A DNA stretch of 64,000 nt from an uncultured Alphaproteobacteria bacterium (GTDB lineage Bacteria > Pseudomonadota > Alphaproteobacteria > UBA8366 > GCA-2717185), in NCBI GenBank assembly GCA_943788635.1, contig CALSRA010000007.1, positions 27,035-91,034 of the forward strand, read 5' to 3'. Positions 10,154-31,505 of the stretch are shown here, piece by piece. The position numbers and the translations under genes are program-made. Within the stretch, counting starts at the first letter, position 1; each line of letters opens with the position of its first letter. The notes under the pieces were generated by a model that was not told the origin of the DNA, did no database searches, and saw only the letters and a list, made by a program, of their open reading frames with translations.

Positions 10154-10200
10154 TACGCGCCTCTATGACGGTGCAAGGGGCGAATTCACCCTGACGCTTA

Positions 10201-11451: not shown

Positions 11452-11461
11452 CTCTGCGGCC

Positions 11462-12367
11462 CTAGAACAGACTGTACCGCAGGGCGAGGCGGAGCTTCAC
11501 CCAGCGCGACAGATGAACCGGTGCGTCGAGCTGCTTCCAGCCCCGCTGCCGAAGCAGTTCGAAAATTTCCCGATAAACCGCCATCATCATTATCGCCGGT
11601 CGCATTTTGCGCTGGTCAAGCTGCCCCATCAGGTCACTGCTGACAGCGAATGCTTCCTTGGCCAGATCGGCAAGATCGACACACACCCGCGCAACTGCGG
11701 GATCAGCCAACAAGGCATCGGGCGTGGTTGCCACAACGCCATGCTTGTCCAGCAGTTCTCTTGGCAGATAGAGCCGCCCCCACAACGCGTCTTCGTGAAC
11801 GTCACGCAGAATATTGGTGAGCTGCAGCGCATTTCCCAGGCTGATCGCCAGATCCGCTGCCGGCGCCCGCGTTTCACCAAACGCATGGATTGACAGCATG
11901 CCCACCGCACCAGCCACCCGCCGGCAATACAGAAAGAGATCCGCATAACTGGGACCCCAGATATCAGCGCGGGCATCCATTTCCATACCATCGATGACGG
12001 TCAGAAATTCAGCTTTAGGCAGATCGAATGCATGAACGGGTTCCAGCAGGGCCTGGGCTGTCAGCAACCGAGGCCGCCCTGCATAAAGGTTCTCGATTTC
12101 CTGCCGCCACGCATCCAGACGTTTCAGCTTTTCCGGACCAGTCCCTGGTTCATCCGCGATATCATCGACTTCCCGGCAGAATGCATAGATCGCGTACATG
12201 GCTGCACGCCGGTCCGCCGGCAAGACACGCATCCCCAACCGAAAAGACGACCCTGATCGTTCGACAACCTGGCGCGCATGCTCAATTGCGGCAGCCTCAT
12301 CGAACGGTGCAGAACCGTCGCTTCCCGGGTTCGGTTGTTTTTCCGCGGTTGAAAGCAAATTTGCCAT
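11462..12367 (-). CDS. hpnD: Presqualene diphosphate synthase HpnD (squalene/phytoene synthase family)
   Basis: YAFCREVDDIADE and NILRDVHEDAL Asp-rich motifs. ATG at 12367 (MANLL...) is preferred. The longest ORF extends to TTG 12433. Confidence 0.85.
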   Translation of the reverse strand: MANLLSTAEKQPNPGSDGSAPFDEAAAIEHARQVVERSGSSFRLGMRVLPADRRAAMYAIYAFCREVDDIADEPGTGPEKLKRLDAWRQEIENLYAGRPRLLTAQALLEPVHAFDLPKAEFLTVIDGMEMDARADIWGPSYADLFLYCRRVAGAVGMLSIHAFGETRAPAADLAISLGNALQLTNILRDVHEDALWGRLYLPRELLDKHGVVATTPDALLADPAVARVCVDLADLAKEAFAVSSDLMGQLDQRKMRPAIMMMAVYREIFELLRQRGWKQLDAPVHLSRWVKLRLALRYSLF

Positions 12368-12448
12368 CGCCTGTTCGATCTCAAAAATATGCGCCGTGTT
12401 CGCGGATAGGCTCCCAGCCAACGCGGCGCGCAACCTTGTATAGCAGAA

Positions 12449-13297
12449 TCAGCCGGACCGGCGAACCACATCCCAGACAGCGCCGACGCCACAGCAAAGA
12501 TATTGCGGACGCCGCAGGACGACCCGTTCCGCCAGCGGATCCCGGTCGCGTAATTCCAGAATCAGGCGGTTCGCAATCCGGACAATCATTGCCGCTTCCA
12601 ACGCGAAACGCCGGTTCTGCAACTGCCCCGCCAGGGGTTGCGCAACGCGCATGAGGTCTGCAGTCAGATCAAGGCAGCGATCAATGACCCGCCGCAAACC
12701 GCTATCAGTCGTCACGCCATCCAGCGCCGCCGTCGTAATACCCGCTTCGGCCATCCAGTCACCGGGCAAATAGACCCGGTCCATTGTCCGAAAATCATCC
12801 TGGCAATCCTGCAGATGGTTGATGACCTGCAGCGCCGCACAAAGCGCATCGGACGCCGGATACGCGTGCCTGGATTCACCGTGCAGGTCTATCAGGTAAC
12901 GGCCAACAGGGGCTGCCGATAATCGGCAATACCCCATCAGCTCATCCCAATCGGCATAACGGGACTGCACCGCATCCTGCTTGAAGGCGTTGATCAGGTC
13001 GATGCAATGCTGCGGATCGACACCCGTTGCGGCCATGCTGTCACGTATCGCATTTGCTTTGGCATATGCAGGGTCCGCGCCACCGGGTTCCCGCAAGGCG
13101 TGCTCGAATCCGGAAAGCCGGTCAATTTTTTGCGCCGCGGGCAGTTCCGGATTATCCGCGATATCGTCTATTGCCCTGGCATAGGCGTAAAATACAGCGA
13201 CATGCGGCCGCAAGGCCGCCGGAAGCAGCCAGGACCCCACCGGGAAATTTTCGTCACCCGCCTGTTTCCCGGACGGTGTTTCTACTGATTCAGACAA
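12449..13297 (-). CDS. hpnC: Hydroxysqualene synthase HpnC (squalene/phytoene synthase family)
   Basis: YAYARAIDDIADN and INHLQDCQDD motifs. The longest ORF (to 13369) overlaps hpnB by 49 nt. TTG at 13297 has GGGAGGA 5 nt upstream and lies just after the hpnB stop. Confidence 0.85.
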   Translation of the reverse strand: MSESVETPSGKQAGDENFPVGSWLLPAALRPHVAVFYAYARAIDDIADNPELPAAQKIDRLSGFEHALREPGGADPAYAKANAIRDSMAATGVDPQHCIDLINAFKQDAVQSRYADWDELMGYCRLSAAPVGRYLIDLHGESRHAYPASDALCAALQVINHLQDCQDDFRTMDRVYLPGDWMAEAGITTAALDGVTTDSGLRRVIDRCLDLTADLMRVAQPLAGQLQNRRFALEAAMIVRIANRLILELRDRDPLAERVVLRRPQYLCCGVGAVWDVVRRSG

Positions 13298-13320
13298 AAG
13301 TTCCTCCCGAAAGCGGCAGC

Positions 13321-14487
13321 TTATTGCTGATAGACACGGCCTTTCCAGCCACCCCCAACGCCCCGCCAATGGCGAACAGCGGAAGAAATCGTCATTGCCG
13401 TATAAAGCATACCAGCGAGAGGCAGGAACACAGCCGTATACAGCGGTCGATCATACAATCGCAATGTCGGAATATAGGCGACACACATCAGTATATAGGT
13501 GGCTAACCCCGCCAGGACGGTTATGGGCGCCAACCAGCCAAAGGCCAGAACCACCAGCAACGGAACGCCATACACAAGCGCCATACCCATAATGCATCCC
13601 ATCAGCAGCCAGGGCGAGTAGCGCAATTGCGTATAGGCGCTTCTGGCAACCATGTTCCAGATTCCACTGAATCCGCCATAAGGACGTGTGGAACGGGTCT
13701 TCGCATCCAGACTCAGCGAAAGACGGCCACCCGCATCTGCGAGACTTCGGGCCAGGGCACAATCGTCAATCAATGCGCCCTTGATCGCATCCATTCCCCC
13801 TGACCGGTGCAGCGCGGAACGGCGCACCAGCATACAGCCCCCGGCCGCTGCCGCCGTATCCCGGGTATCATCATTGACCCGGCTGAACGGATAGAGCATC
13901 TGAAAAAAGAAAACGAAGGGCGGTATCAAAAACCGTTCCCAGAAGCCCTTCGTCATCAACATCACCATGATCGATACCAGGTCTTTGCCTTCGGTTTCAG
14001 CGGTGTGAACCAGGCGCCGCAGGTTCGAAGGGGCATGTTCAATATCGGCATCGCTGAACAGAATATATCGCGCCTGCGGGGCGATACTGTCTGCGTGCGC
14101 CACCCCCTGCGCCATCGCCCAGACCTTGCCTGTCCAGCCCGGCGCAAGGGGGGCACCGTCCACCACGGCCAGGCGATCGGCATGCCCGGCCTCCTCGGCC
14201 GCCGCGCGGGCAATCGCCGCCGTGCCATCATTGCTGTTGTCATCAACCAGAACGATTGAAACCGGGCGCGAATAGTCCTGCTGCTGCAACGACAAAACCG
14301 TACGGCTAATGACATCGGCCTCATTGCGTGCCGGGATGACCACAAGAACATCCGGCCATTCCGGTAGATCGGGATTTGGCAATTCGTTGGCCGACAGGGT
14401 GCTCCGCCAGAAACCGCCATGAAAGAAGACAAGATAGACCCATGCGGCACATGACATCACGGCCAGAATTGCAGCGACGTAAATCAA
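13321..14487 (-). CDS. hpnB: Hopene-associated family-2 glycosyltransferase HpnB
   Basis: 388 aa. GT2 motifs VVIPARNE, VDDNSNDGT and FSDADIEH, plus C-terminal TM helices. TTG start lies 3 nt after the upstream stop. Confidence 0.8.
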   Translation of the reverse strand: MIYVAAILAVMSCAAWVYLVFFHGGFWRSTLSANELPNPDLPEWPDVLVVIPARNEADVISRTVLSLQQQDYSRPVSIVLVDDNSNDGTAAIARAAAEEAGHADRLAVVDGAPLAPGWTGKVWAMAQGVAHADSIAPQARYILFSDADIEHAPSNLRRLVHTAETEGKDLVSIMVMLMTKGFWERFLIPPFVFFFQMLYPFSRVNDDTRDTAAAAGGCMLVRRSALHRSGGMDAIKGALIDDCALARSLADAGGRLSLSLDAKTRSTRPYGGFSGIWNMVARSAYTQLRYSPWLLMGCIMGMALVYGVPLLVVLAFGWLAPITVLAGLATYILMCVAYIPTLRLYDRPLYTAVFLPLAGMLYTAMTISSAVRHWRGVGGGWKGRVYQQ

Positions 14488-14490
14488 GGG

Positions 14491-15243
14491 TCACACGCGG
14501 AATACATACTCTTTGCCCGTCTCCCGCTCCACATCAGGCGGGAAACTCTTGCGCTTGTCCGCATAATACTGTGCACGGTGGTCGCCGTCGGCACGCCGGT
14601 TGTAGGTCACGTACAGGACACGACGGGGCGATTGCGTAAGATTTGGCGCTGACCGATGGGGCGCATAGGAATCAAACAGAACCACATCACCGGGCTGAGT
14701 CGGACAGGAGTGGTATTTGATCTCGCTGCCTTCGCCGTCATCCAGCGGTTGCCACTCGTTGCCGATCAGCCCCCTGTCATGCCATCCGGCTGCCATTTCC
14801 AGGCAACCATTCGTCGTCGTCGCCGCATCGATACTGACCAGTGCCGTAATGTGAAAATCCGAATAGACGTTCCAGCCTGCCTGCGCATCCTGATGCGCCT
14901 TGAAGCCGTCGCCGCCCGGCATCTTCATATTGATCTTTTCCTTGAAAAGAACCGCGGCTTCGCCAAGCAATTGTGACACTGCATCAATCATGGCGCCGGT
15001 CCGGATCAGATCGTCAAAACCGGCATGGAACGGACAGAAATTTTCGACCCGGGACACGACACGGTCCGCACCAGCAATCAGGCTGTCTTCATAATAGACC
15101 ATGTGTTCACCCGGCAACTCGGGCCAACCGAGGATTTCTTCCGTCCATGTGGCAATTTTGCCGACACTCGCCACGTCGTACATTGCCGGGACGATGACAT
15201 AACCGTCTCGCCGAAAAGACCGAATCTGTTCTTCTGTCAGCAT
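14491..15243 (-). CDS. Phytanoyl-CoA dioxygenase (PhyH)-family Fe(II)/2-oxoglutarate oxygenase
   Basis: 250 aa. LTEEQIRSFRRDGYVIV N-terminus, HxD triad element (AHQD) and distal His (YAPHRS). It is the first gene of the minus-strand hpn operon. Confidence 0.75.
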   Translation of the reverse strand: MLTEEQIRSFRRDGYVIVPAMYDVASVGKIATWTEEILGWPELPGEHMVYYEDSLIAGADRVVSRVENFCPFHAGFDDLIRTGAMIDAVSQLLGEAAVLFKEKINMKMPGGDGFKAHQDAQAGWNVYSDFHITALVSIDAATTTNGCLEMAAGWHDRGLIGNEWQPLDDGEGSEIKYHSCPTQPGDVVLFDSYAPHRSAPNLTQSPRRVLYVTYNRRADGDHRAQYYADKRKSFPPDVERETGKEYVFRV

Positions 15244-15439: not shown

Positions 15440-17128
15440 ATGCAGGCCATCGATTTGTTGGCAAACAGCATTCCACAATTTGAAGCCAATATCGACGACC
15501 ACGAAACGATCGTCGCCGCCTTCGATAAGCTGAGAGTCGCCGTCTCAATTTTTGATGAGAACGACTGCCTGACCTATTGCAACACGCATTTTCGGTTTAT
15601 TTTTCAATCATTTCAGGCCCTGGACCGGCTGATTGGCAAGTCCTACGCAGAATTGCTTCGCTGCAAGCTCGACAATAACGAAATTGCCGGGACCCAGGTC
15701 GTGGAAGACCCGGACGCCTGGATTGCCTATCGGATGACGTTACGCAAACGCCCGATGGAAACACCGCTGGAAGAACGTCTCACGGATGGCCGCTGGATCC
15801 GCATCAACGAAAGAGCATTGGATAATGGCGGAACGATCCGGATGTACACGGATATTACCGCAACGAAAGTCAATGAATACCGGTTCCTGAGTGCCGTCGA
15901 GGACAGCCGCGACGCACTCGCATTCTGGGATCAACGGGACCGCCTCATCATGCGCAACGATGCGTTTGAGGAATTGTTTTATACGCCGGGCGAAAACCTC
16001 GTGCCGGGCGTTGCTTTCGACGACGTACTGCGCGTCGCTGCCGAATATCACTTTCATATCGAAGATTGCCAAGCCAGCGATTGGATTGAGGCTCGTGTCG
16101 AGCGCCACCGTCTACCGGATCATCGGGAAATGTGGCGACACAAGGACGGTCGATGGTTTCTGGTCAACGAGCACCGGTCGCGAGACGGCGGTGTTGTAAC
16201 GCGCCTGTCAGACGTCACCGAGGTCAAGGAAAACGAACTCGCGATGATCGAGCGCGGCACGACCCTGTCCGGCGCCGTGCATCAGCTCGAAATGTCCAAG
16301 GTCATGTTCGAAAAACAGGGCGCCGAGCATGTCAACGCCATCGAAGAACTGGCCATTGCAAAGACAGATCTGGAATCTGCCAATGCCAGCCGGTCGCGGT
16401 TTCTCAGCATCATCAGCCATGAACTTCGAACACCGATGAATGCGATCATCGGTTTTTCGGAAATCATTAAAAACGAAATGCTGGGCCCGTTGGGTACCGA
16501 GAAATATGTCGAGTATGCTGGTGACATTTTCACCAGCGGTCAGCATCTGTTGTCATTGATCAACGACCTGTTGGACATGTCAAAGGTCGAGGCCGGAAAA
16601 TGGCAACTCCATCGAAGCGACGTCAATATCGAATCCCTCGTCCTTTCGTGTTGCAGACTGATGTCGGAACAGGCGGCAAGCGCCGAAATCAGCATCGAAC
16701 ATTCCTTCACCGATATTCAGGGGCCTATCCATATCGACGAGCGGGCAATCCGACAGGTTCTGCTGAACCTGCTCTCCAATGCCCTGAAATTCACCGGTCG
16801 TTGCGGCATTGTTGCCGTCACCACCGCGATTTACGACAATTTCCTGACAATCTCGGTCGCGGACAATGGCGTCGGCATCCAGAACAGGGATCTGGCGCGC
16901 GTCTTCAAGCCGTTTGAGCAAGGGGAAAACAACCTGAACCGCACCCATGAGGGAACGGGACTGGGGCTGTCCCTGTGCAAATCACTGATCGAACTTCATG
17001 GCGGCACAATTCATCTCGAAAGCCACGAAGGCGAAGGGACTGTTGTAACCTTTGTGCTGCCATTGCTATTTGATCCGCAGGCGGATCAATCAGCCCCACA
17101 CTCCATCCCGCTGGTCGATTCAGCTTAG
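15440..17128 (+). CDS. PAS-domain sensor histidine kinase (no adjacent response regulator)
   Basis: 562 aa. H-box SHELRTPMNAIIGFSE, N-box LLNLLSNALKF, G-boxes DNGVGI and GTGLGLSL. The N-terminal ~300 aa are PAS-like repeats. Confidence 0.85.
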   Translation: MQAIDLLANSIPQFEANIDDHETIVAAFDKLRVAVSIFDENDCLTYCNTHFRFIFQSFQALDRLIGKSYAELLRCKLDNNEIAGTQVVEDPDAWIAYRMTLRKRPMETPLEERLTDGRWIRINERALDNGGTIRMYTDITATKVNEYRFLSAVEDSRDALAFWDQRDRLIMRNDAFEELFYTPGENLVPGVAFDDVLRVAAEYHFHIEDCQASDWIEARVERHRLPDHREMWRHKDGRWFLVNEHRSRDGGVVTRLSDVTEVKENELAMIERGTTLSGAVHQLEMSKVMFEKQGAEHVNAIEELAIAKTDLESANASRSRFLSIISHELRTPMNAIIGFSEIIKNEMLGPLGTEKYVEYAGDIFTSGQHLLSLINDLLDMSKVEAGKWQLHRSDVNIESLVLSCCRLMSEQAASAEISIEHSFTDIQGPIHIDERAIRQVLLNLLSNALKFTGRCGIVAVTTAIYDNFLTISVADNGVGIQNRDLARVFKPFEQGENNLNRTHEGTGLGLSLCKSLIELHGGTIHLESHEGEGTVVTFVLPLLFDPQADQSAPHSIPLVDSA

Positions 17129-17177: not shown

Positions 17178-17669
17178 TCAGACGCGGCGATAGGCGTGGT
17201 ACCGTCCAGGTTCAACATCCTGCGGCAACGGTATCGGCGTCAATTCCGGCACCGTATCAAGCGCCTGGTCACACAACACGAGACCTCCCGACACAAGCAA
17301 TCCCGGAATTTTCGGGCCAATTTCACGGACATTCCGCGCCGTCGCCGCGGCGTCGCCATAACCGATATCCGCATGCACCAGTATCCCATTCGGGCCAAGC
17401 CGGTCCGTCGCCGTCAGCAGCGTTTCGGACATCGGCCCCAGAAACATATGCGCACTATCAGGGCGGCAGTCCGGATGCGAAGCCACTTCCAGGTCGAAAA
17501 CATAAATATCCCGGTCCGGGAAAAGATCGCGCAGATGATCATATGTCCGGCCATTGCCCAAACCGAGCTCAAGGATATGGCCATCATTGCCACGCAAGGC
17601 CTCCGCCGCCGCGTTCAGGCAGCTGCGCTGCGCCTTAAGGCGCTCGATAACCGTATCCAGTCGCGTCAT
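17178..17669 (-). CDS. Putative class I SAM-dependent methyltransferase
   Basis: 163 aa. ILELGLGNGRTYDHL resembles SAM-binding motif I, followed by an acidic residue after the next strand (VFDLE). Confidence 0.5.
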   Translation of the reverse strand: MTRLDTVIERLKAQRSCLNAAAEALRGNDGHILELGLGNGRTYDHLRDLFPDRDIYVFDLEVASHPDCRPDSAHMFLGPMSETLLTATDRLGPNGILVHADIGYGDAAATARNVREIGPKIPGLLVSGGLVLCDQALDTVPELTPIPLPQDVEPGRYHAYRRV

Positions 17670-17699: not shown

Positions 17700-18155
17700 T
17701 CAGCTCTGCGACTTGGCAACAGCTTCGCGAAGCCGTGCCGTTGTCTGTTCAAGGCGGTGCGCCAGTTCGCGCATGATCTCCACGGCGATTTCCGGAAACT
17801 CGACAATCAGGTTGAAAAACAGGTCCTTTGAAATGCGGAGAGTCGTCAACTGGGACTTGGCGCGGACCGTCGCCGTTCGCGGCACATCGCAAAGGATGGC
17901 AATTTCACCAACAATTTCGTTCTGTTTCAGTGTCGCGACAACCAATGGCCCGCCCGGTGTGTCGATAATAACATCGGCTTCACCACCGATAATAATATAT
18001 GCCGCATCGCCGGAATCGCCCTGTTCGAAGACAACATCCTCTGGACTGTATGTCAGCCGCTCGCTTGTAAATGCCAGCAACTTCAGCTTCGACGCATCGA
18101 TCTTGGCAAAGAGCGGGATGTTCCGAAGGAGTTCAACTTCCTGCTGTAAGCTCAT
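17700..18155 (-). CDS. Stand-alone cyclic nucleotide-binding (CAP/PKA-type) domain protein
   Basis: 151 aa. Intact phosphate-binding cassette VGEIAILCDVPRTATVRA. Strong RBS AGGAGA sits in the 17-nt gap after the ABC gene. Confidence 0.85.
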   Translation of the reverse strand: MSLQQEVELLRNIPLFAKIDASKLKLLAFTSERLTYSPEDVVFEQGDSGDAAYIIIGGEADVIIDTPGGPLVVATLKQNEIVGEIAILCDVPRTATVRAKSQLTTLRISKDLFFNLIVEFPEIAVEIMRELAHRLEQTTARLREAVAKSQS

Positions 18156-18172: not shown

Positions 18173-20830
18173 TCAGCCGGCCGAAAGCAGTGACTGAAAT
18201 TCGCCATCTGCCGTACTCAATTCATCGAACGAACCGGTTTCGACAATTCGTCCCGACTTTAGCACAACAGTCTTACTGAAATATTTTGCATCTGAAACGC
18301 GGTTGAGGATCCACAATACGCCCCGGCCTTCGCAATCCCGCAGGATATTTTCCATCACCGTGTTCTGGCTGAGCGCGTCGAGATTGGCCGATGCCTCATT
18401 CAGGATCAACATGTCGGGCCGGCGGATCAGGCAACGCGCGATCGCCAGTTTCTGCCGCTGGCCCTGCGACAACCGTGCGCCGCCATTACCTGCCTGAAAG
18501 TCGAGGCCGGCCGCGGTCACCGTTTCACGCAACTCCAGTTCATCAACGACTTCACTGATCAATTTGCCGACCTTCGCCTCTGCCTGCGCCTGACCATAAG
18601 ACACCTTTCCGAACAGGATATTATCCTGCAGGGTCGCGGCCGGGTTGTAGGCATCCGCATCGAAGAAGGCGATCGCCTCGCGCAAATCTTCGGGCAGCCC
18701 CTCCGCAAAGACCCGTCTGGCCTCCAGGATGCGTGGCATCATCTGATCATCAATCAAATCAAGGCGGTGCCGTGCCCGGATCAGCTTGAAGGGCAGGGAT
18801 ACAAGCCGGCGACGATCTTCCACCGTCAACCCTTCAGGCCCCCGCGCTGCACGGCCTAGTATGGCCTGGAACTCGGGCAGATCGTCAGATTCGATGAAAC
18901 TGAATTGCTCAAAGAACTCATGCCCGGGCGGCAGGCCCGCGAACAGTTCCAGCATCGTCTGCGCCACCTGCGTCCCCATATCAAGGAAGTCAGCACTCAA
19001 ATTCACCTTGTCGAGGACCACCTGCATATAGGCGCTGTCGGCCAGGTTCTCGAGGTCAAACGCATTCCCGATCGGGAGGCCAAAAAGAATATTCTCGGCA
19101 ACCGACGCATTCGAATTATACGTTTCGATATCGAAAGGTTCTATCAACTGCGCCACGGCCGGGTCCGATAACCTGCCGCGCAATGCGGCGCGTGCGGACA
19201 TAATGAGTTCAGCCGTTTCGGGCTGGCGCTCCGGATCAATCACGCCGCGCAATCCAAACCTGTAAACTTCATCGTCCATATCGACAATCTGCAGGATTTC
19301 GATCAAACGATGCTGCAGCCCATTCAGGTCTTCGACACCGGCTTCTTCATAGTCTACCCAGTCCGAATGGTAGTCATATGGTGAATTCCCCGTGGTAACC
19401 GCCTCTTCCAGGTCCGTCACATGCTCGGCTGAATCCTGGTTGGCCGGGCGCAACGAACGATGCTTCAGGCCATACAGGATATTATCGCCAATCGAAGCCG
19501 CCTGCAGATAAGGGCTGGCATTCACATAGGCGATCCGGCGACCGGTCACAGACTCGGGAAGGTTCGAAAGGTCGCTGCCACCGAACTTGATCGTCCCGGA
19601 TGTCGGCCTGACGAGCCGGGCCAGCACCGCGCCGAGTTCGGTTTTACCGCTGCCGCCATCACCGACAAATGCTGTATGCGCCGTTGTCGAAGTCGTCAGT
19701 GACACAGCATCCAGAGTGCGCACACCGTCTTCATCCGCAAGGCCGATATTGCTCAGGACCAGATCACCCCTGATCGGCGGTGGCCCCTCGGGCTCCGCGA
19801 TCTGAAGCTCTTCGTCAAGCATGCCCTGTGGTTCGAACTGCTCGATCACCTGTTCGTATTTTATGCGAACGTCTTCCTTTTGCTGATACCAGCTCAACAA
19901 TTCCTTCCAGGGGCTGGCTAGCTCCTTGTAGGCATTCAGAACGGCAACAAGCGCGCCGACCGTCAGGTCACCCTGAATGACCAGATAGCCGCCGATCGAA
20001 AAGAAGAAAAATGGCGTAAGTTTGTCGATGAAATTATTGAGGAACTTAATGAAGAACTTGCGCCGATAGATATCGTACCGGATGTCATAGATGGCGCCCA
20101 ACCGGTTGGCGAACCGGGACAGCTCATAAAATGACGTATCATGCGCGTGAATTTCGCTGATCCCTGAAATGGACTCACCCAGGTGATCGGACAGGCGACG
20201 GACATTTTGAACGCGTTGCTTGCCCAGCGCGTTCACCCTCTTCTGCAGCTTCGGGATAATGTAACCCTGAATCGGAATCATCCCGGCGGCAGCGAGACCC
20301 AGCACCCAGTCCTGCATCAGGATATAGCCAACGATCAGCAGCAACTGGCCGCCAAAGAACAATGGATCAGCATATGCAATGCCGATAAACCCGCCCAAAG
20401 GCTCCACCTCCGCGGTGACCATTGGAATCACTTCGCCCTGGCTGACTTTCTTGAAATGCGGCGTCGGGAACCGAAGAATTCGGGAATACAGTTGATATCG
20501 CAGGCGCCGAAGCAGCCTTTCACCCAACCGGCCCTTGTAAACACTGATGTAATATTTGAAGCCGCCGGTAATAAATACCAGGGCGAGATAGGCAAAACTC
20601 AATATCATCAGATAGGTGAGCTGCGTGACATCGAGCGGAATCTCAAAGCCAAACAAGGGCACGTCAAAAGGCGGCGCTGCGCCGTCGCTCCTGATTGCCC
20701 TGTTAACGATGATCTTTGGCAGATCAAGCGTTACAAACAGAAATGGGTAGAATGCGATAATGACAAAAAGCAATACGATCTGCTGCCGCAGACTGTAACG
20801 CAGAATGTATTTGAAGATACTGCTTTCCAT
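18173..20830 (-). CDS. Atypical ABC half-transporter (TMD-NBD) with a large insertion in the NBD and substituted catalytic residues
   Basis: 885 aa with an N-terminal ~330-aa ABC exporter TMD. Walker A GDGGSGKT is at 19640-19663 and the signature LSQGQ is ~390 residues later. Walker B reads LILNEA (Asn codon 18398-18400) and the H-loop reads ILNRVS (Asn codon 18302-18304). Confidence 0.85.
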   Translation of the reverse strand: MESSIFKYILRYSLRQQIVLLFVIIAFYPFLFVTLDLPKIIVNRAIRSDGAAPPFDVPLFGFEIPLDVTQLTYLMILSFAYLALVFITGGFKYYISVYKGRLGERLLRRLRYQLYSRILRFPTPHFKKVSQGEVIPMVTAEVEPLGGFIGIAYADPLFFGGQLLLIVGYILMQDWVLGLAAAGMIPIQGYIIPKLQKRVNALGKQRVQNVRRLSDHLGESISGISEIHAHDTSFYELSRFANRLGAIYDIRYDIYRRKFFIKFLNNFIDKLTPFFFFSIGGYLVIQGDLTVGALVAVLNAYKELASPWKELLSWYQQKEDVRIKYEQVIEQFEPQGMLDEELQIAEPEGPPPIRGDLVLSNIGLADEDGVRTLDAVSLTTSTTAHTAFVGDGGSGKTELGAVLARLVRPTSGTIKFGGSDLSNLPESVTGRRIAYVNASPYLQAASIGDNILYGLKHRSLRPANQDSAEHVTDLEEAVTTGNSPYDYHSDWVDYEEAGVEDLNGLQHRLIEILQIVDMDDEVYRFGLRGVIDPERQPETAELIMSARAALRGRLSDPAVAQLIEPFDIETYNSNASVAENILFGLPIGNAFDLENLADSAYMQVVLDKVNLSADFLDMGTQVAQTMLELFAGLPPGHEFFEQFSFIESDDLPEFQAILGRAARGPEGLTVEDRRRLVSLPFKLIRARHRLDLIDDQMMPRILEARRVFAEGLPEDLREAIAFFDADAYNPAATLQDNILFGKVSYGQAQAEAKVGKLISEVVDELELRETVTAAGLDFQAGNGGARLSQGQRQKLAIARCLIRRPDMLILNEASANLDALSQNTVMENILRDCEGRGVLWILNRVSDAKYFSKTVVLKSGRIVETGSFDELSTADGEFQSLLSAG

Positions 20831-20920
20831 GGATCGGCGCTGCGACCTCCGCCGTGCACGACTGAATTCCCTTATTGGGACACCTTAGCGCAGCATCCTT
20901 CGAGGGTAAACGTTTAGAAA

Positions 20921-21016
20921 TTGATCATTTTTGATCGATATCATTCAAATAAATATTATCCCCTGTTTAATTCTGACCTTTTGATTACTCTGTTAAGCAT
21001 GCAATAGTAGGATCAA
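20921..21016. promoter_or_regulatory. AT-rich divergent control region with phased TTGAT(C/T) repeats
   Basis: TTGATC at 20921 and 20931, TTGATT at 20981, and inverted GATCAA at 21011, directly before ATG 21017. The three direct copies are spaced by multiples of 10 bp. The region is much more AT-rich than its flanks. Confidence 0.4.
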
Positions 21017-22270
21017 ATGACTGTTGGCGGGGAGAGTAAAGGGGATCGGGGCATGAGCGGAGACCATCGCCCGCCGCGGGTACTAGTATATAGTCATGAT
21101 TCGTTCGGGCTGGGCCATTTGCGCCGTTGCCGCGCGATCGCGCACGCCATGTGCGAAGACAACGAAGAACTGTCCGTCCTGATTCTGTCCGGTTCGCCGA
21201 TTATTGGCAGTTTCGATTTTCGGTCCAGGGTCGATTTCGTTCGCGTTCCCGGCGTCATCAAGTTGCGCAACGGGGAATACACGTCCCTGACTCTGCCTAT
21301 GGCAATCGAAGATGCGATTGAAATGCGCGCATCGATCATTCGCCATACGGCCGAAGTCTTTGACCCGGATATCATGCTGGTCGACAAGGAGCCTTCCGGT
21401 CTGCGGGGCGAGCTCTCCGAGACGCTGGAAGTCATGAAGCAGCGTGGCACGCATATCGTTCTTGGTTTGCGCGACGTGCTGGATGACCCCCTGCAGTTGC
21501 GGGCGGAGTGGAAGCGGAAGAACGCCGCCGCAGCGCTGGAGGAATATTACCACGAAATCTGGGTGTACGGCCTGCCGCAAATCTGCGAGCCGCTGGACGG
21601 CATAGAATTGGCCGCATCGACACGGCGCAAGACAACCTATACCGGCTACCTGCAGCGTTTTGCTGATACTCAAACGGTTTCCGAACTGCCCTTCATCAAG
21701 CGCGACGACCCGTTCATTCTTGTAACGCCCGGTGGCGGTGGCGATGGAGAGGAACTGGTCGACTGGGTTCTTCGCGCCTATGAATCAGACAGTTCCCTGC
21801 CGCATAGGTCCGTTATCGTCCTTGGCCCGTTCATGCAGTCAGACCGCCGGGCCGAATTCATCGCGCGCACGGACAAACTGTCAAAAGTCGAAGCCATTAC
21901 CTTCGACGCGCATATGGAAAGCCTGATGGTCAAGGCAATCGCGGTCGTGGCGATGGGCGGATACAATACGTTTTGCGAAATCCTGTCATTCGACAAACGC
22001 GCCCTTATCGTGCCGCGGACTGAACCCCGCCGCGAACAGCTAATCCGGGCCAGCCGGGCAGCGGAATTGGGACTTTTGACCATGTTGCGCGGCGACGACG
22101 ATCGAAAAGCCGACGTCATGGCAACCGCATTGCGCCATCTGCCACAGCAGGACCCGCCGTCTCGGTCGGTTGTGCCCGGGCTGATGGCTGGTCTTGAAAA
22201 CGTGAATATCCTGACCCGGCGCGCTCTCGGCCTTAAAAAACGCCCGTCCCTGGCCCGGAAGCGCGCCTGA
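21017..22270 (+). CDS. Glycosyltransferase (MurG/GT28-like, COG4671-type)
   Basis: 417 aa. N-terminal VLVYSHDSFGLGHLRRCRAIA and C-terminal GGYNTFCEIL, resembling GT-B enzymes of the MurG-like class. An alternative start lies at 21053. Confidence 0.7.
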   Translation: MTVGGESKGDRGMSGDHRPPRVLVYSHDSFGLGHLRRCRAIAHAMCEDNEELSVLILSGSPIIGSFDFRSRVDFVRVPGVIKLRNGEYTSLTLPMAIEDAIEMRASIIRHTAEVFDPDIMLVDKEPSGLRGELSETLEVMKQRGTHIVLGLRDVLDDPLQLRAEWKRKNAAAALEEYYHEIWVYGLPQICEPLDGIELAASTRRKTTYTGYLQRFADTQTVSELPFIKRDDPFILVTPGGGGDGEELVDWVLRAYESDSSLPHRSVIVLGPFMQSDRRAEFIARTDKLSKVEAITFDAHMESLMVKAIAVVAMGGYNTFCEILSFDKRALIVPRTEPRREQLIRASRAAELGLLTMLRGDDDRKADVMATALRHLPQQDPPSRSVVPGLMAGLENVNILTRRALGLKKRPSLARKRA

Positions 22271-22274
22271 CACC

Positions 22275-23507
22275 GTGTCCGTTCAATTTATTCTGAAAGG
22301 GTACCCTCGCCTTTCGGAAACCTTTATTGCCCAGGAAATCCTGGCACTCGAACGGCGGGGCCTCGAGATCAATATCGCATCACTGCGCCACCCGACCGAT
22401 GACAGGGTTCATCCGATTCATCGCGATATCAGGGCAGAAGCACTGTACCTGCCGGAATACCTGTACCAGGAACCCGAACGCGTGCGGGATGCCCGCGCCG
22501 CGGCGCAGCGTCTTCCGGGCTATCAAACCGCGTATGCCTGCTTTCGCGCGGATTTAAAGCGGGATCCCACCCGGAACAGGATCAGGCGCTTCGGGCAGGC
22601 CTGTGTCCTGGCCCACGAGCTGCCCGAAGGTGTCACACGACTGCACGCCCATTTTCTGCATACGCCGGCATCCGTCGCCCGCTACGCCGCCATGATGACC
22701 GGCCTGCCATGGAGCTGTTCTGCCCACGCCAAAGACATCTGGACAACACCGGAATGGGAGATGCGGGAGAAACTGGCGGATCTGGATTGGCTCGTTACCT
22801 GCACCGCCGCCGGCGCGGATTTTCTGGCGGGATTGGCACCGGGGAAAGATACCGTCTCGCTGGTCTATCACGGGATCGATTTTTCCCGCTTCCCGCCGCC
22901 CCCTGACGCCCGACCGGGCCTCGACGGGCAGGCGGCACCCGTCACGATCCTTTCCGTCGGCAGGGCAGTGGGGAAGAAAGGCTATGATGATCTGCTGACA
23001 GCGCTTTCTCGGTTGCCAGCCGATATTAACTGGCGCTTCCGTCATATCGGGGGCGGGCCATTGCTGGAAACCCTGAAAGCGCAGGCACAGCAGCTTGGAA
23101 TTGCGGCACATGTCGAATGGTACGGCGCCCGCGCGCAGGAAGATGTGCTGGACGCATTGCGGCACGCGGATATTTTTGTTCTCGCCAGCAAGACAACCGA
23201 TGACGGAGACCGCGATGGCTTGCCAAACGTCCTGATGGAAGCCCAAAGTCAGTGTTTGCCCGTTCTTTCAACCATGGTCTCAGGCATTCCCGAACTCATT
23301 CACCACGACACGACCGGACTGCTGGTTCCGCCCGGCGATGCGTTGGCCATTGCAACGGCGCTTGAACGGCTGATCCGCAACCCTTCGGAGCGACGGCGCC
23401 TCGCCGACGCGGGACTGGACCGTGTGCATTCGCAATTTTCGATGGACCATGGCGCGGATACCCTGGCGGCGCGGTTCCTTCGGGATCCCCAATCCGCCGC
23501 GGCCTGA
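22275..23507 (+). CDS. Family 4 (GT-B) glycosyltransferase
   Basis: 410 aa. C-terminal GLPNVLMEAQSQCLPVLST...GLLV matches the GT4 EX7E region. GTG start lies 4 nt after the upstream stop. Confidence 0.8.
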   Translation: MSVQFILKGYPRLSETFIAQEILALERRGLEINIASLRHPTDDRVHPIHRDIRAEALYLPEYLYQEPERVRDARAAAQRLPGYQTAYACFRADLKRDPTRNRIRRFGQACVLAHELPEGVTRLHAHFLHTPASVARYAAMMTGLPWSCSAHAKDIWTTPEWEMREKLADLDWLVTCTAAGADFLAGLAPGKDTVSLVYHGIDFSRFPPPPDARPGLDGQAAPVTILSVGRAVGKKGYDDLLTALSRLPADINWRFRHIGGGPLLETLKAQAQQLGIAAHVEWYGARAQEDVLDALRHADIFVLASKTTDDGDRDGLPNVLMEAQSQCLPVLSTMVSGIPELIHHDTTGLLVPPGDALAIATALERLIRNPSERRRLADAGLDRVHSQFSMDHGADTLAARFLRDPQSAAA

Positions 23508-24637
23508 TGCGCGTCGCGTTCTATTCGCCGCTTAAACCGCCGTCCCACCCGATTGCATCGGGCGACCGACGGGTGGCCCGGTTGCTGCTCGCCGCCATCC
23601 GGCAGGGCGGTAACGATGCCTTCGTAGCATCGACGTTACGCGCATTCGAAGGCGCCGGCGATCCAAAGCGGCAGCATCTTATCCAGCGCCGGGGTGAAGC
23701 CATCGCCCGCCGCCTGATAACGAAATTTGAATCCAATCCACCGGACCTGTGGTTCACCTATCACCTCTATCACAAGGCGCCTGACTGGGTCGGTCCCGCC
23801 GTATGCGAGGCATTGTCCATCCCCTACGTCGTGGCTGAAGCCAGCATTGCACCCAAACAGGCCGACGGACCCTGGTCCGAAGGCTACAATGCTGTTCTGT
23901 CGGCCGTACGCCGCGCATCGCGCATCATTACGCTGAACCCGGACGACCGCGCGTGCATAGAGCCGGTTGTCGGATCGCCGGAACGTATCGTCATGCTGCC
24001 GCCGTTCATTGATACCCGTCCCGTGCGACGCACCGTCGCGAAACGGGTCGGGCATCGAACGGACCTATCCAGACAGCTGGGCATTCCCACATCCGATATC
24101 TGGATTGCGGTATCCGCGATGATGCGCCCAGGGGATAAACTGGAATCATACCGCGTCCTGGGGCGGGCCATGCAAAGACTTCAGGACGTGCCATTACGCT
24201 GGCTCGTTGCCGGCGACGGCGCGGCACGCGGGGAAGTCGAAGCGGCGTTGGACGCCGGCACGGTCAGCTATCTTGGCTCACTGGGGCGCCGCGACATGGA
24301 CAACCTTCACGCCGCAGCGGACGTCGCGGTCTGGCCGGCAATCCGGGAAGCCTTCGGCATGGCGCTGCTGGAAGCCCAGGCGGCCGGCTTGCCGGTTGTT
24401 GCGGGCCGCTCACCGGGTGTTGCACAGATTGTCGCCGACGGCGAAACCGGCTTGCTGACAACGCCCGGCGACGACAAGATGCTGGCCGACGCCGTACGGA
24501 TACTCGCCGGCAACGCGGAGCAACGACGCAGCATGGGACAAGCAGCGATGAAAAAGGCCGAAAACCAACACGATATCAGCTCTGCCGCCAGGCAAATCGG
24601 GCGCGTGCTGCAGGAAGCGGAAGGGACAAGGAAATGA
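23507..24637 (+). CDS. Family 4 (GT-B) glycosyltransferase
   Basis: 376 aa. FGMALLEAQAAGLPVVAG...GETGLL motif. Its start overlaps the upstream stop (TGATG). Confidence 0.8.
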   Translation: MRVAFYSPLKPPSHPIASGDRRVARLLLAAIRQGGNDAFVASTLRAFEGAGDPKRQHLIQRRGEAIARRLITKFESNPPDLWFTYHLYHKAPDWVGPAVCEALSIPYVVAEASIAPKQADGPWSEGYNAVLSAVRRASRIITLNPDDRACIEPVVGSPERIVMLPPFIDTRPVRRTVAKRVGHRTDLSRQLGIPTSDIWIAVSAMMRPGDKLESYRVLGRAMQRLQDVPLRWLVAGDGAARGEVEAALDAGTVSYLGSLGRRDMDNLHAAADVAVWPAIREAFGMALLEAQAAGLPVVAGRSPGVAQIVADGETGLLTTPGDDKMLADAVRILAGNAEQRRSMGQAAMKKAENQHDISSAARQIGRVLQEAEGTRK

Positions 24638-25230
24638 CGTTGCTTGCCGTTATCCGCCACGGCCCCACCCACTGGAATGAAACCGGAATTGTACAGGGGC
24701 GCAGTGATATCCCACTCAGCGAGACTGGCCGCAGCCTTGTCGGTAGCTGGCAGGTACCGGAAGCATTCACGGAATACGAATGGGTGACGAGTCCGTTGGT
24801 CCGAGCCGCCGAAACCGCAAAGATCCTGAGCGGACAGCCGCAACCAACCGACCACCGGCTCGTTGAAATGGACTGGTCTGCGTGGGAAGGCATGAAACTG
24901 CCGGATCTGCGCGCGCAATTGGGCAACCTGATGAAAGCCTGGGAGGCCGAAGGATTGGACTTCCGGGCACCCGGCGGGGAAAGCCCCCGTGACGTGCAGG
25001 ATCGTTTAAGGCCGTTTCTGGCAGAACGCGCCGCGGTCGGCACACCGACAGTTGTGGTTTGCCACAAGGGTGTCATCCGGGCGCTGTACGCAATGGCGGT
25101 ATCATGGGACATGACCGACAAACCGCCGGAGAAGCTGCAGGATAATTGTACCCATGTTTTCCGACTGGAACCGGATGGCTCGCCGCAACCCCATCAACTC
25201 AACCTGCCGATGACGACCACTGAAGAATGA
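24634..25230 (+). CDS. Histidine phosphatase family protein (phosphoglycerate-mutase-like)
   Basis: 198 aa. Catalytic RHG motif (AVIRHGPTHWN). ATGA overlaps at both ends. Confidence 0.85.
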   Translation: MTLLAVIRHGPTHWNETGIVQGRSDIPLSETGRSLVGSWQVPEAFTEYEWVTSPLVRAAETAKILSGQPQPTDHRLVEMDWSAWEGMKLPDLRAQLGNLMKAWEAEGLDFRAPGGESPRDVQDRLRPFLAERAAVGTPTVVVCHKGVIRALYAMAVSWDMTDKPPEKLQDNCTHVFRLEPDGSPQPHQLNLPMTTTEE

Positions 25231-26384
25231 CGGCATCGCATCGCAAGCGGGTGATGTTTTATGTCCAGCACCTGCTGGGCGTCGGGCATCAGGCGCGCGC
25301 CGCCGCTATCACGCGTGCGATGCAGGCAAACAATCTTGAAGTCCACTATGTTTCCGGGGGATTCGATGAATCCCGGCAGGACCTCGGCGACGCCCGGTAC
25401 GTTCAGTTGCCGCCAGCCCGGACGGCGGATGCATCCTTCACCACGTTACTGGATGTCAACGGGCAGCCGGTCGATACCGCCTGGGAAAACAGGCGTCGGC
25501 AGGCCCTTCTGGATACCTACGCCGCGATAGCGCCGGATGTGCTACTTGTCGAAAGCTTCCCGTTCGGTCGACGCCGTTTCCGATTCGAACTGCTTCCCTT
25601 ACTGGAAGCCGCAAACGGAAAATCGGCCATTGCGGCCTCTGTACGGGATATCCTTGTTGAACGAGACGACCCCAAACGAACGCAATGGATCATCGACACC
25701 GCACGGTCGTTTTTCAATACCATCATCGTCCATGGTGACCCGGCGGTCGCTCCATTCTCGGACACATTCGCCGGTGCCGATGCCATCGCCGACATGATCT
25801 GTTATTCCGGCTATGTCACCGCACCACCGGTCACCGCAACGGAACCGCGAACTGAGTCAGTCCTTGTTTCGGCCGGAGGGGGCGCCGTCGGTGGACCACT
25901 GTTGCGTACGGCAATAGCGGCACGGCCTTTGACAAAATTGGCAAATGCGCCCTGGCAGCTGGCGACCGGACCAAATATGGCCGAATTCGATCGAAAATCA
26001 CTGATTGTGCCGCCTGGTGTGACGGTGGACACATTTTTTTCAAATTTCAGGCATATTTTAACCAAAGTTACGGTATCGGTAAGTCAGGCAGGGTATAATA
26101 CCGTCATGGATCTATACACTACTGGTACCCGCGCCGTTCTGGTTCCTTTCAGCAGCCATGGTGAAACCGAACAATCGCGGCGGGCTGAAATTCTCGCTGG
26201 GAGAGGTCATTTTCAGGTTGTTCCGGAAGAATCCCTCACGCCGGAAACGCTGGCCAGGGCAATTGACCGTGCGCTCGACGCCGCCCCGCCCGACCCGGCA
26301 GGTATACATTTCAATGGCGCACACAGAACGGCCGAGATCGTGGCCGCGCTCGCAGGTGGCAAGCCGCCACCCCATTCACTGTAG
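25227..26384 (+). CDS. Glycosyltransferase (MurG/GT28-like, paralogous class to 21017-22270)
   Basis: 385 aa. FYVQHLLGVGHQARAAAITRA N-terminus and AGYNTVMDL C-terminal motif parallel the first GT of the block. Confidence 0.65.
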   Translation: MTASHRKRVMFYVQHLLGVGHQARAAAITRAMQANNLEVHYVSGGFDESRQDLGDARYVQLPPARTADASFTTLLDVNGQPVDTAWENRRRQALLDTYAAIAPDVLLVESFPFGRRRFRFELLPLLEAANGKSAIAASVRDILVERDDPKRTQWIIDTARSFFNTIIVHGDPAVAPFSDTFAGADAIADMICYSGYVTAPPVTATEPRTESVLVSAGGGAVGGPLLRTAIAARPLTKLANAPWQLATGPNMAEFDRKSLIVPPGVTVDTFFSNFRHILTKVTVSVSQAGYNTVMDLYTTGTRAVLVPFSSHGETEQSRRAEILAGRGHFQVVPEESLTPETLARAIDRALDAAPPDPAGIHFNGAHRTAEIVAALAGGKPPPHSL

Positions 26385-26391
26385 GCAGCGC

Positions 26392-27168
26392 ATGTCCGCC
26401 CCGTTGCACGCACATAACCAGACAGCCTGGTCCGAATTCCTCGCGGAACTGGACACCTGGGCCGCGTCCGGTCGTCGTGCTGAATTCTGGTGGCGGGATG
26501 ACGACGCAACCAAACCCGGCCCGGCGCTGGATCGCCTGATTGCCATCACCGGCGCAAATCCTCTAGCTCTCGCCGTTATCCCGGCGTCGGCAACAGCAGA
26601 ACTCGCCAGCGTGACGCGCGACTACCCGAATATTGACGTCGTGCAGCATGGGTTCGCCCATACCAACCACGCGCCTATCGGCGAGAAAAAGGCTGAATTC
26701 GGGGCGCACAGGCCAATCCAGGTCATGCGAAACGAAATACTGGAAGGGCGCAAACGCCTGACCGAACTGTTTGGCGCGACCTTCACCGCCGTCTTCGTGC
26801 CCCCCTGGAATCGCATCGCGAGTTCGGTCGCGGCGGCGCTGGAAGCCTGCGAATTTTCGCGGCTTTCGACGTTTGGCAGCACCGACCCGAATGCCATACC
26901 GAAACAAATCAATTGCCACATCGACATTGTAAACTGGCGTGGCGGCCGCGGGTTTTTGGGCGTCGAACCTGTTCTGGATGCCTTTACCGCCCTGCTTTCC
27001 GGCATCCGGACGGGCGCGTTACCCGTCGAATTGCCTGTTGGCCTGTTGACCCATCACCGCGACCATGACGATGCCGGCTGGCTATTTCTCGAGGAACTGG
27101 CCCCCGTTCTGGCGGACCACCCGGGAGTCAATTGGCTGCCTGTTGTCCCGGAAAAGGGAGCGCGCTGA
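26392..27168 (+). CDS. Polysaccharide deacetylase-like protein
   Basis: 258 aa from ATG 26392. WWRDDDAT and HGFAHTNH resemble NodB-type metal-binding motifs. The longer ORF from 26158 overlaps the preceding GT and was not used. Confidence 0.55.
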   Translation: MSAPLHAHNQTAWSEFLAELDTWAASGRRAEFWWRDDDATKPGPALDRLIAITGANPLALAVIPASATAELASVTRDYPNIDVVQHGFAHTNHAPIGEKKAEFGAHRPIQVMRNEILEGRKRLTELFGATFTAVFVPPWNRIASSVAAALEACEFSRLSTFGSTDPNAIPKQINCHIDIVNWRGGRGFLGVEPVLDAFTALLSGIRTGALPVELPVGLLTHHRDHDDAGWLFLEELAPVLADHPGVNWLPVVPEKGAR

Positions 27169-27169
27169 A

Positions 27170-27682
27170 ATGGAGCTGCGGTATCCCCTAAAGAGCCTTT
27201 ATGGCGACTACCTGCGGGCACTGATCGGGATGGTTATTCTTGGAACGCCGTTCTTTTATTCCCTTATTAACGGCAGCTTTGTCGTGACCACTATCATGGG
27301 CATGCTGCTCTCGTTATTCCTCATCTTCGGGATACGGACCTATTTTCGCCAGATAACCATAATATCGGTCGGCGACGACGGTATCGCGTCAAGCGGCCCT
27401 TTTGGCCGTCGGCTCGCGTGGAACGATCTTGTGCAGGTCGATTTACGGTATTATTCGACCCGTCGCGAAAAAGCGGGAAAAGGCGACGGTTGGATGCAGA
27501 TGAAAATCTGCGATTCGGGGGGATGCATGAAATTCGATTCTTCTTTGCAACATTTTAACGACCTTGCCGCAAAAGTTGCCGCTACGGCGTTTCAGAACAA
27601 TGCGGAAATGTCAGAGACAACAATAGAAAACTTCACGGCAATGGGCATAACCATTGCAATTCCGGAAGAGGCTGTGGAATGA
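27170..27682 (+). CDS. Hypothetical membrane protein (two N-terminal TM helices plus soluble domain)
   Basis: 170 aa from ATG 27170, 1 nt after the upstream stop. Hydrophobic segments [16 protein letters not shown] and [18 protein letters not shown]. No family recognised. Confidence 0.5.
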
Positions 27683-31490: not shown

Positions 31491-31505
31491 AACAGGCGCA
31501 CGCAT

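Follow-up and report, generated by a model that had tools for sequence, protein, structure and literature searches.

A widespread alphaproteobacterial family of type IV ABC exporter-fold proteins with a triplicated segment in the nucleotide-binding domain and an adjacent or fused cyclic-nucleotide-binding domain

Exporters of the ATP-binding cassette (ABC) type are defined by the ATP-driven dimerization of their nucleotide-binding domains (NBDs), and to our knowledge the exceptions, among them CFTR and SUR as well as heterodimers in which one site is degenerate, all retain one working ATP site. Here we describe an ABC half-transporter-like protein of 885 amino acids (aa), recognized from its open reading frame (ORF) and from Pfam and Foldseek matches, whose NBD is split by a large insert. 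Its gene lies at 18173-20830 (-) in a stretch of 64,000 nucleotides (nt) from an uncultured Alphaproteobacteria bacterium (GCA_943788635.1, CALSRA010000007.1 positions 27,035-91,034, forward strand; this whole stretch is referred to as the window, and coordinates are those of the window). The reading that we favor, with moderate confidence, is that the protein forms a homodimer deficient in hydrolysis and serves as an ABC-fold exporter or gate for a glycan product, under the control of cyclic AMP (cAMP) or cyclic GMP (cGMP).

The best sequence and structure matches to this protein are MsbA, Sav1866, the PCAT1 core, NdvA/ChvA, and HepA, with which it shares the order of transmembrane domain (TMD) and NBD, the ABC_membrane fold, and the NBD core. 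Unlike those type IV homodimers, it has an NBD that is interrupted by ~270 residues, and its A-loop, Q-loop, signature, Walker B, and H-loop are non-canonical. Inserts at the equivalent place, past the Q-loop and ahead of the signature, are found as the coiled coil of Rad50/SMC, the insertion domains of UvrA, and the arm of ABCF; these proteins are soluble and catalytically active, and their inserts are not made from NBD repeats. A functional analogy can be drawn with CFTR and SUR (ABCC7 and ABCC8/9), in which an exporter scaffold acts as a gated channel or regulator whose control lies with cytoplasmic regulatory modules and, ultimately, with cAMP signaling. The analogy goes no further than function, since CFTR and SUR have no close sequence relation to this protein, keep one hydrolytic site, and carry no triplicated Q-loop/helical-subdomain insert; they are regulated by R-domain phosphorylation or Mg-nucleotides and not through a directly attached domain that binds cyclic nucleotide monophosphates (cNMPs).

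Walker B, the H-loop, and the signature are likewise substituted in TM287/288, TmrAB, BmrCD, TAP1/2, the ABCC family, and Pdr5, and the literature describes degenerate sites both for heterodimers and for full-length transporters in which one consensus site is retained (PMC7756269). These proteins, with that one site preserved, are the products of two adjacent genes or of one full-length gene, in contrast to the lone gene described here; because no partner is encoded nearby, both sites of this protein would be degenerate. We found no report in the literature of a single-gene exporter in which both sites are degenerate. HetC and the NHLP-type exporters (TIGR03797 and TIGR03896) resemble the present system in that a cNMP-fold domain is joined to an ABC exporter. 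In HetC, this domain is N-terminal, is needed for function, and binds ppGpp in vitro instead of cAMP, without classic ligand binding, and the HetC ATPase is canonical, with an essential catalytic residue (PMC10986499). Here, unlike in HetC, the domain is C-terminal or stand-alone and has a canonical phosphate-binding cassette, and it is the NBD that is degenerate.

In the 885-aa protein, a six-helix TMD precedes the NBD, with a Pfam ABC_membrane (PF00664) match at residues 70-298 (E 6.3e-23). The AlphaFold2 model, read with DSSP, has six long helices in residues 1-335 (19826-20830, -). The whole-protein model, built from an alignment of 146 sequences, has a mean predicted local distance difference test (pLDDT) score of 84.7 and a predicted template modeling (pTM) score of 0.78, and most of the NBD and insert is above 90 in pLDDT. 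When this model is compared with the PDB by Foldseek, the matches are exclusively type IV ABC exporters (PCAT1, TmrAB, TM287/288, MsbA, Sav1866, and HlyB), with E values of ~1e-18. The insert is present in none of the half-transporter matches, which are about 550-700 residues long, and the remaining matches are full-length ABCB proteins. The type IV exporter architecture of the TMD is complete by Pfam, AlphaFold2, and Foldseek, and we conclude that the protein has the type IV ABC exporter fold. It is not one of the named exporters in NCBIfam (MsbA, HepA, CydD/CydC, NdvA/ChvA, HlyB, and NHLP ABC1/ABC2), for all of which it falls far short of the cut-off (best match MsbA, 194.5 bits versus 602; HepA, 186 versus 725; TIGR03797, 149.7 versus 709.4). 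Nor is it a pseudogene or an assembly artifact: the gene is full length, is found at 48-81% identity across 80 species, and encodes a protein that recurs in identical form on 18 contigs. The segment EVEPLGGFIGIAYADPLF of the third transmembrane helix (residues 142-158, window about 20357-20407) ranks with the best-conserved parts of the family, at 3.4 bits. It is also the sole part of the AlphaFold2 model whose pLDDT drops under 50, and it may mark a break in the helix or a site for substrate.

The NBD departs from the canonical pattern in its layout and in most of its motifs. Walker A (GDGGSGKT, residues 390-397; 19640-19663, -) matches GxxGxGK[ST] and is intact in this protein, while it decays in distant relatives. 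The distance from Walker A to the signature is 397 residues, compared with ~100 residues in typical NBDs, so that there is no contiguous NBD of ~200 aa. Accordingly, ABC_tran (PF00005) is matched in two stretches, one at residues 373-466 that covers profile positions 1-80 and the rest after about residue 716. The N-terminal alignments to NCBIfam exporter models end at residues 451-479 and the C-terminal ones begin at 714-716, and phmmer alignments to PDB sequences (ABCB4, ABCB1, PCAT1, ABCB10, and BmrA) cover only residues 103-463 and 776-883. The signature is degenerate (LSQGQ, residues 787-791; 18458-18472, -) and falls on LSGGQ in the phmmer alignments ("lsQgq"/"lsGgq"). In Walker B (MLILNEAS, residues 807-814; 18389-18412, -), N811 (AAT, 18398-18400) is aligned with the usual Asp ("mlilNeas"/"illlDeat"), and in the H-loop (ILNRVS, residues 841-846; 18293-18310, -), N843 (AAC, 18302-18304) is aligned with the usual His ("wilNrvs"/"viaHrls"). 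The Q-loop Gln is also missing, with A438 aligned at its place, as is the A-loop aromatic residue, where L364 is found. A first-pass annotation of the DNA had claimed that the NBD was split by a large insert and that the catalytic Asp and His were both replaced by Asn. The first claim is borne out by the Pfam, NCBIfam, and PDB alignments and the second by the alignments to ABCB4 and ABCB1, and on recomputation the ORF and every motif and codon position that it quoted were found to be correct.

The sequence that is extra to a canonical NBD, as judged from AlphaFold2 and Foldseek, spans residues about 457-732 (18635-19462, -), which is an insert of about 270 residues. The short motif that follows the Q-loop occurs three times, as SIGDNILYG (446-454), SVAENILFG (576-584), and TLQDNILFG (733-741), and these are three occurrences of the pattern [ST][ILV]x[DE]N[IL]L[FY]G compared with 1.6e-5 expected from the composition of the protein. 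The region comprises three pseudo-repeat units. Unit 1 (residues 415-536; 19223-19588, -) contains the pre-Q-loop strand, a Q-loop without Gln, SIGDNILYG, a spacer, and a helix; unit 2 (residues 537-696; 18743-19222, -) contains a helix, a strand, YNSNASVAENILFG, further helices, and a putative vestigial signature, GLTVEDRRRL; and unit 3 (residues 697-786; 18473-18742, -) contains a helix, a strand, YNPAATLQDNILFG, and then the genuine helical subdomain up to the signature. Comparison of family sub-alignments by hhalign (415-536, 537-696, and, for unit 3, 697-830) gave 97.9% probability for unit 2 against unit 3 (E 4.5e-13, 99 columns), 89.7% for unit 1 against unit 2 (E 1.9e-6, 58 columns), and 76% for unit 1 against unit 3 (E 2.2e-5, 72 columns). 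Each unit has a helix, a pre-Q-loop strand, a segment of Q-loop length that lacks Gln, a [DE]N[IL]L[FY]G turn, and the helix with which the helical subdomain opens, and every copy of IAYVNASPYLQAASIGDNILYG is 22 residues, which is the length of the canonical segment. We conclude that the part of the NBD that starts with the pre-Q-loop strand and runs through the first helix of the helical subdomain is duplicated twice in tandem, producing a helical module of ~270 residues. The partial internal triplication proposed in the first-pass annotation is therefore real, and it extends past the short motif. In the alignment of unit 2 with unit 3, GLTVEDRRRL aligns with the signature RLSQGQRQKL; this is weak but suggestive of a unit 2 that may once have run through a signature motif.

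Residues 455-745 modeled alone with AlphaFold2 are mostly helical with four short strands (pLDDT 87.8, pTM 0.78). The insert is not a known domain: Pfam has no domain in residues 467-715 at E values up to 1, the PDB sequence search aligns only its flanks, and Foldseek finds no significant neighbor of the insert model in the PDB (best E 1.7, template modeling score ≤0.18). The insert is thus a confidently predicted fold without a solved counterpart.

To determine whether these features are peculiar to one sequence, we compared it with its relatives. A search of 5.8 billion proteins yielded 119 full-length relatives, all of 870-940 aa and 54-100% identical to the query, and when only the insert (residues 455-732) was compared with 1.84 billion cluster representatives, it matched 880 50%-identity clusters at E ≤1e-3, 602 at ≤1e-10, and 228 at ≤1e-30. 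In a scan that used one genome per GTDB species, at least 579 species carry a relative of the ABC protein. Cultured carriers include Azospirillum soli, A. aestuarii, A. halopraeferens, Thalassobaculum litoreum, Sneathiella spp., Nisaea nitritireducens, and Oceanibacterium hippocampi, and a complete Defluviicoccus metagenome-assembled genome also carries a relative. We found no paper on the insert-bearing ABC family in the full-text literature, the public names of its members are generic, and a paper on the cGMP/CgrA regulon of R. centenum mentions unrelated ABC genes only. Based on these results, we conclude that the insert-bearing ABC proteins are a widespread, unstudied alphaproteobacterial family.

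The substitutions are as widespread as the insert in this family. Asn is found at the Walker B position in 101 of the 119 full-length relatives and at the H-loop position in 94 of them; their signature is LS-x-x-Q, and the residue following the Walker A Lys is S, D, G, or T. In the family alignment of 146 sequences, which consists of 83 close and 63 distant (fused) relatives, the Walker B Asn is present in 72 of the close and 49 of the fused sequences (121/146). The H-loop Asn is present in 65 of the 83 close relatives, and the fused relatives most often have Ser. The Walker A Ser/Thr position is mostly D, E, or G in this alignment, the Walker A Gly and Lys are not invariant, and the Lys is gone in several distant members. 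In contrast, N580, N737, G741, H688, R547, and R705 are invariant. Among the 119 relatives, motif copies 2 (YNxNA[ST]VAENLLFG) and 3 (YNxAA[ST]xQDNILFGK) are nearly invariant, more so than copy 1. In the insert-bearing full-length cluster representatives, the decay of the ATPase motifs goes further: several are without the Walker A Lys and few retain the Asp or the His, but copies 2 and 3 persist. NBDs are normally the conserved part of ABC proteins. In this family the order is reversed, with the TMD the most conserved at 3.13 bits per column, compared with 2.2-2.8 for the insert and 2.33 for the C-terminal part of the NBD. The motifs for ATP hydrolysis have thus been lost or relaxed across the family, and stronger constraint acts on both the membrane domain and the repeat motifs. 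The insert and the two Asn substitutions are therefore family traits, and the homologue comparison that could have refuted the first-pass annotation, by showing them to be unique to this sequence, does not do so.

These data bear on whether the protein could still be an ATP-driven pump, in which slow but sufficient hydrolysis, or a power stroke from binding only, would drive transport, the cNMP protein would modulate the rate, and the insert would be a regulatory add-on. We consider this unlikely. Five of seven motifs (A-loop, Q-loop, signature, Walker B Asp, and H-loop) are non-canonical, many relatives are without the Walker A Lys or Ser/Thr, and conservation is lower in the NBD than in the TMD. 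In ABC transporters, mutants with Asn for the Walker B Asp, like H-loop mutants, bind nucleotide without hydrolyzing it, and the former are hydrolysis dead. What speaks for a pump is that the Walker A Lys-Thr, Glu812, and the D-loop Asp are kept in this protein, and that the Walker B Asn is conserved rather than random. HetC, which likewise has a cNMP-type domain, is a working exporter with an essential ATPase catalytic residue (PMC10986499).

The gene immediately downstream of the ABC gene, at a distance of 17 nt, encodes a stand-alone cNMP-binding protein of 151 aa (17700-18155, -; Pfam cNMP_binding PF00027, E 1.7e-18), which amounts to a single cyclic-nucleotide-binding domain. In order to see how constant this arrangement is, we sampled 80 species loci with an ABC protein identity of 48-81% and scored the neighbors by tblastn; some neighbor absences among these loci stem from contig ends. 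The cNMP gene is immediately downstream in 79 of the 80, and L062 is the sole locus at which neither a cNMP nor a glycosyltransferase nor a methyltransferase neighbor was detected. The cNMP protein is better conserved than the ABC protein, at 51-89% identity in most loci and 39-42% in four of them. The phosphate-binding cassette of the cNMP protein, GEIAILCDVPRTATV (GE..PR[TS]A), fits the pattern G-E-x-A-x(5)-P-R-[ST]-A and is retained in nearly all of the 79 orthologues. Compared with TIGR03896, the 151-aa protein is a weak match at 42.3 bits, far below the cut-off of 161. Long relatives of the ABC protein (1010-1206 aa) carry a C-terminal cNMP_binding fusion in 9/9 tested, of which 2 also have a GGDEF domain. 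There is a large sister clade, with members in Aestuariispira insulae, Curvivirga, and Marivibrio, in which the architectures are ABC-insert-cNMP (about 1035 aa) and ABC-insert-cNMP-GGDEF (about 1185 aa). Over about 140 aa, the 151-aa protein shares 46% identity with the C-terminal fusion domain of P0361 and 38% with that of P0166. The ABC protein and a canonical cNMP-binding domain are thus one genetic unit, whether next door or fused, which is a classic Rosetta-stone link. One cNMP-fused paralogue has a gene for a CHASE2 and class III adenylate/guanylate cyclase directly upstream on the same strand (L009 6737-8905), and this cyclase is a possible dedicated source of ligand.

The fused GGDEF domains lack GG[DE]EF in 35/35 cases (e.g., P0361, P0305, and P0316, about 1185 aa). 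This rules out GGDEF-fused relatives as sensor-to-cyclase devices, and the domains are degenerate and receptor-like, not cyclases; they recall the degenerate GGDEF receptor domains of polysaccharide secretion systems. The degeneracy of all of the enzymatic-looking accessory domains, NBD as well as GGDEF, is what one would expect of a non-transporting membrane regulator or scaffold which, like SUR for Kir6, would convert the cNMP level into glycosyltransferase activity or assembly, with the insert binding the enzymes. The tight synteny with soluble glycosyltransferases described below is in keeping with such a role. However, no part of the protein is more conserved than the TMD, in which the exporter architecture is complete, and this better fits a translocation path or a specific membrane ligand, and we give the regulator or scaffold only a small chance of being correct.

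No second half-transporter gene (ABC_membrane/TMD-like) was found in the 64-kb window or within 7 kb on each side of the ABC gene in the 80 loci. As a result, a homodimer with two degenerate sites, as the first-pass annotation had supposed, appears to be the likeliest assembly. It is the least probable of the explanations weighed here that this protein is instead the degenerate half of a heterodimer, like those of TM287/288, TmrAB, and BmrCD, with a competent partner encoded elsewhere in the genome. Degenerate sites are indeed well known among heterodimeric type IV exporters (PMC7756269). Nevertheless, the gene survey just described located no candidate partner, the known bacterial heterodimers are encoded by adjacent genes, and with both the cis motifs and the trans signature degenerate, a canonical partner would give only one good site.

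The second conserved association is with enzymes of glycan synthesis. The third gene of the ABC operon encodes a 163-aa S-adenosylmethionine methyltransferase (Methyltransf_17; 17178-17669, -; Pfam E 4.6e-48; PDB 3iht, E 2e-32), present in 55/80 loci. From the gene layout, the ABC operon is separated by an intergenic region at 20831-21016 from a divergent, syntenic operon at 21017-27682 (+) which, by Pfam and NCBIfam assignment, encodes a GT28-like protein, two GT4 proteins, a branch-1 histidine phosphatase, a GT28-C protein, a 258-aa protein, to which no family is assigned, and a 170-aa membrane protein. Among the 80 loci, the GT28-like gene is present in 74, the first GT4 gene (GT4a) in 73, the second (GT4b) in 65, the GT28-C gene (GT28b) in 72, the phosphatase gene in 59, and the 258-aa and 170-aa genes in 48 each. 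The ABC unit is therefore in synteny with an operon that encodes four glycosyltransferases and a phosphatase (59-74 of 80 loci, depending on the gene). In addition, a GGDEF-fused relative (L008) shares one operon with the same glycosyltransferase/phosphatase set.

The presence of a methyltransferase and a phosphatase within the conserved cluster raises the question of whether the insert, instead of docking the cNMP protein, recognizes cargo and reads a methylated or phosphorylated glycan terminus, much as the carbohydrate-binding domain at the C-terminus of Wzt does, and the invariant polar residues N580, H688, R547, R705, and N737 would suit such a function. We think this very improbable, since the insert is all helical and derived from the NBD, unlike known carbohydrate-binding modules, and its conservation is just as high in those fused paralogues that have no glycosyltransferase, methyltransferase, or phosphatase neighbors.

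Under the reading that we favor, that of a hydrolysis-deficient exporter or gate controlled by cAMP or cGMP, the ABC protein would form a homodimer in which both nucleotide sites at most bind nucleotide, without useful ATP turnover. The 151-aa partner would dock on the cytoplasmic module formed by the NBD and insert, and binding of cAMP or cGMP to the partner would drive or permit NBD closure and so switch the membrane domain. The cargo would be a glycan or glycoconjugate made by the neighboring operon, moved or flipped over the inner membrane, and its movement would be down its own gradient or would end in trapping on the far side. More speculatively, nucleotide binding that does not depend on Mg may be maintained by the conserved Walker B Asn. 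The first-pass annotation had proposed a nucleotide-gated or regulatory protein rather than a conventional pump. The regulatory part of that proposal is strengthened, but ATP as the gating nucleotide is not: because the cNMP gene is nearly always adjacent or fused, the gating nucleotide is more probably cAMP or cGMP on the partner, and the loss of the Walker A Lys in distant members makes gating by ATP unlikely as a general rule. A bolder version, which we put forward tentatively and would sooner doubt than assert, is that the family gave up ATP hydrolysis and that the cNMP sensor clamps the triplicated module in place of the ATP sandwich, making the protein a cyclic-nucleotide-gated glycan exporter or channel.

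Several observations weigh against the hydrolysis-deficient reading. Slow hydrolysis, or switching driven by ATP binding, may still take place, because this protein still has an intact Walker A (GxxGxGKT) together with Glu812, its catalytic residue, and the Asp of the D-loop, and because a few relatives retain Asp or His at the substituted sites. The conservation of the Walker B Asn suggests that a function of the nucleotide site has been kept, as opposed to simple decay. The putative cargo is assigned from synteny, and one fused paralogue (L007) is without glycosyltransferase neighbors. Finally, we know of few precedents for a downhill transporter with an ABC fold.

If the favored reading is correct, it represents a different way to drive the ABC scaffold that is common to ~880 50%-identity clusters and at least 579 species, and cAMP/cGMP signaling in Alphaproteobacteria gains a membrane effector on which it acts directly and not through transcription. 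From the syntenic glycosyltransferase operon, an undescribed glycan under second-messenger control can be expected. The family is experimentally tractable in its cultured hosts (Azospirillum, Thalassobaculum, Sneathiella, and Nisaea).

Several features of the glycosyltransferase operon can be added. The GT28-like protein has no sequence relative in the PDB. In a relative of 76% identity (L004 5351-7807), the GT28-like gene and the first GT4 gene are called as one 818-aa ORF, which may be a real fusion or an assembly frameshift. The 258-aa protein (26392-27168, +) has NodB-like motifs (WWRDDDA and QHGFAHTNH) and a weak DUF2334 match (E 0.12), and it may be a glycan deacetylase. The 170-aa protein (27170-27682, +) has no family match; it has hydrophobic N-terminal segments, with one or two likely membrane-spanning helices, and is 28-52% identical across its 48 loci. 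In the intergenic region at 20831-21016 there are only weak sigma-70-like matches, all on the + strand, which is the direction of the glycosyltransferase operon, and over the whole region covered by the promoter/terminator scan the matches are not clearly above chance.

The glycosyltransferase operon is directly followed by a GsiA/Opp-like importer (27679-33673, +) that begins with a fused double-NBD ATPase (27679-29577); judging from L001 and L008, the three ORFs behind the ATPase would be an SBP_bac_5 binding protein and two permeases. A GsiA/Opp-like importer also flanks the ABC unit in L004-L006 and the GGDEF-fused locus L008. On the other side, a hopanoid-type gene set at 8093-15243 (-) comprises a squalene-hopene cyclase (8093-10153, -), an amine-oxidase/HpnE-like gene (10201-11451, -), two SQS_PSY genes (11462-13369, -), a GT2/GT21 glycosyltransferase (13321-14487, -), and a PhyH dioxygenase (14491-15243, -). 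These genes adjoin the ABC unit only in close relatives, and we could rule them out as part of the unit, since they are missing from two inspected relatives of 56-58% identity in which the cNMP gene and the glycosyltransferase operon are kept. A PAS-PAS-HisKA-HATPase histidine kinase gene (15440-17128, +) is convergent with the ABC-cNMP-methyltransferase operon and is found beside the unit in 3 of the 80 loci.

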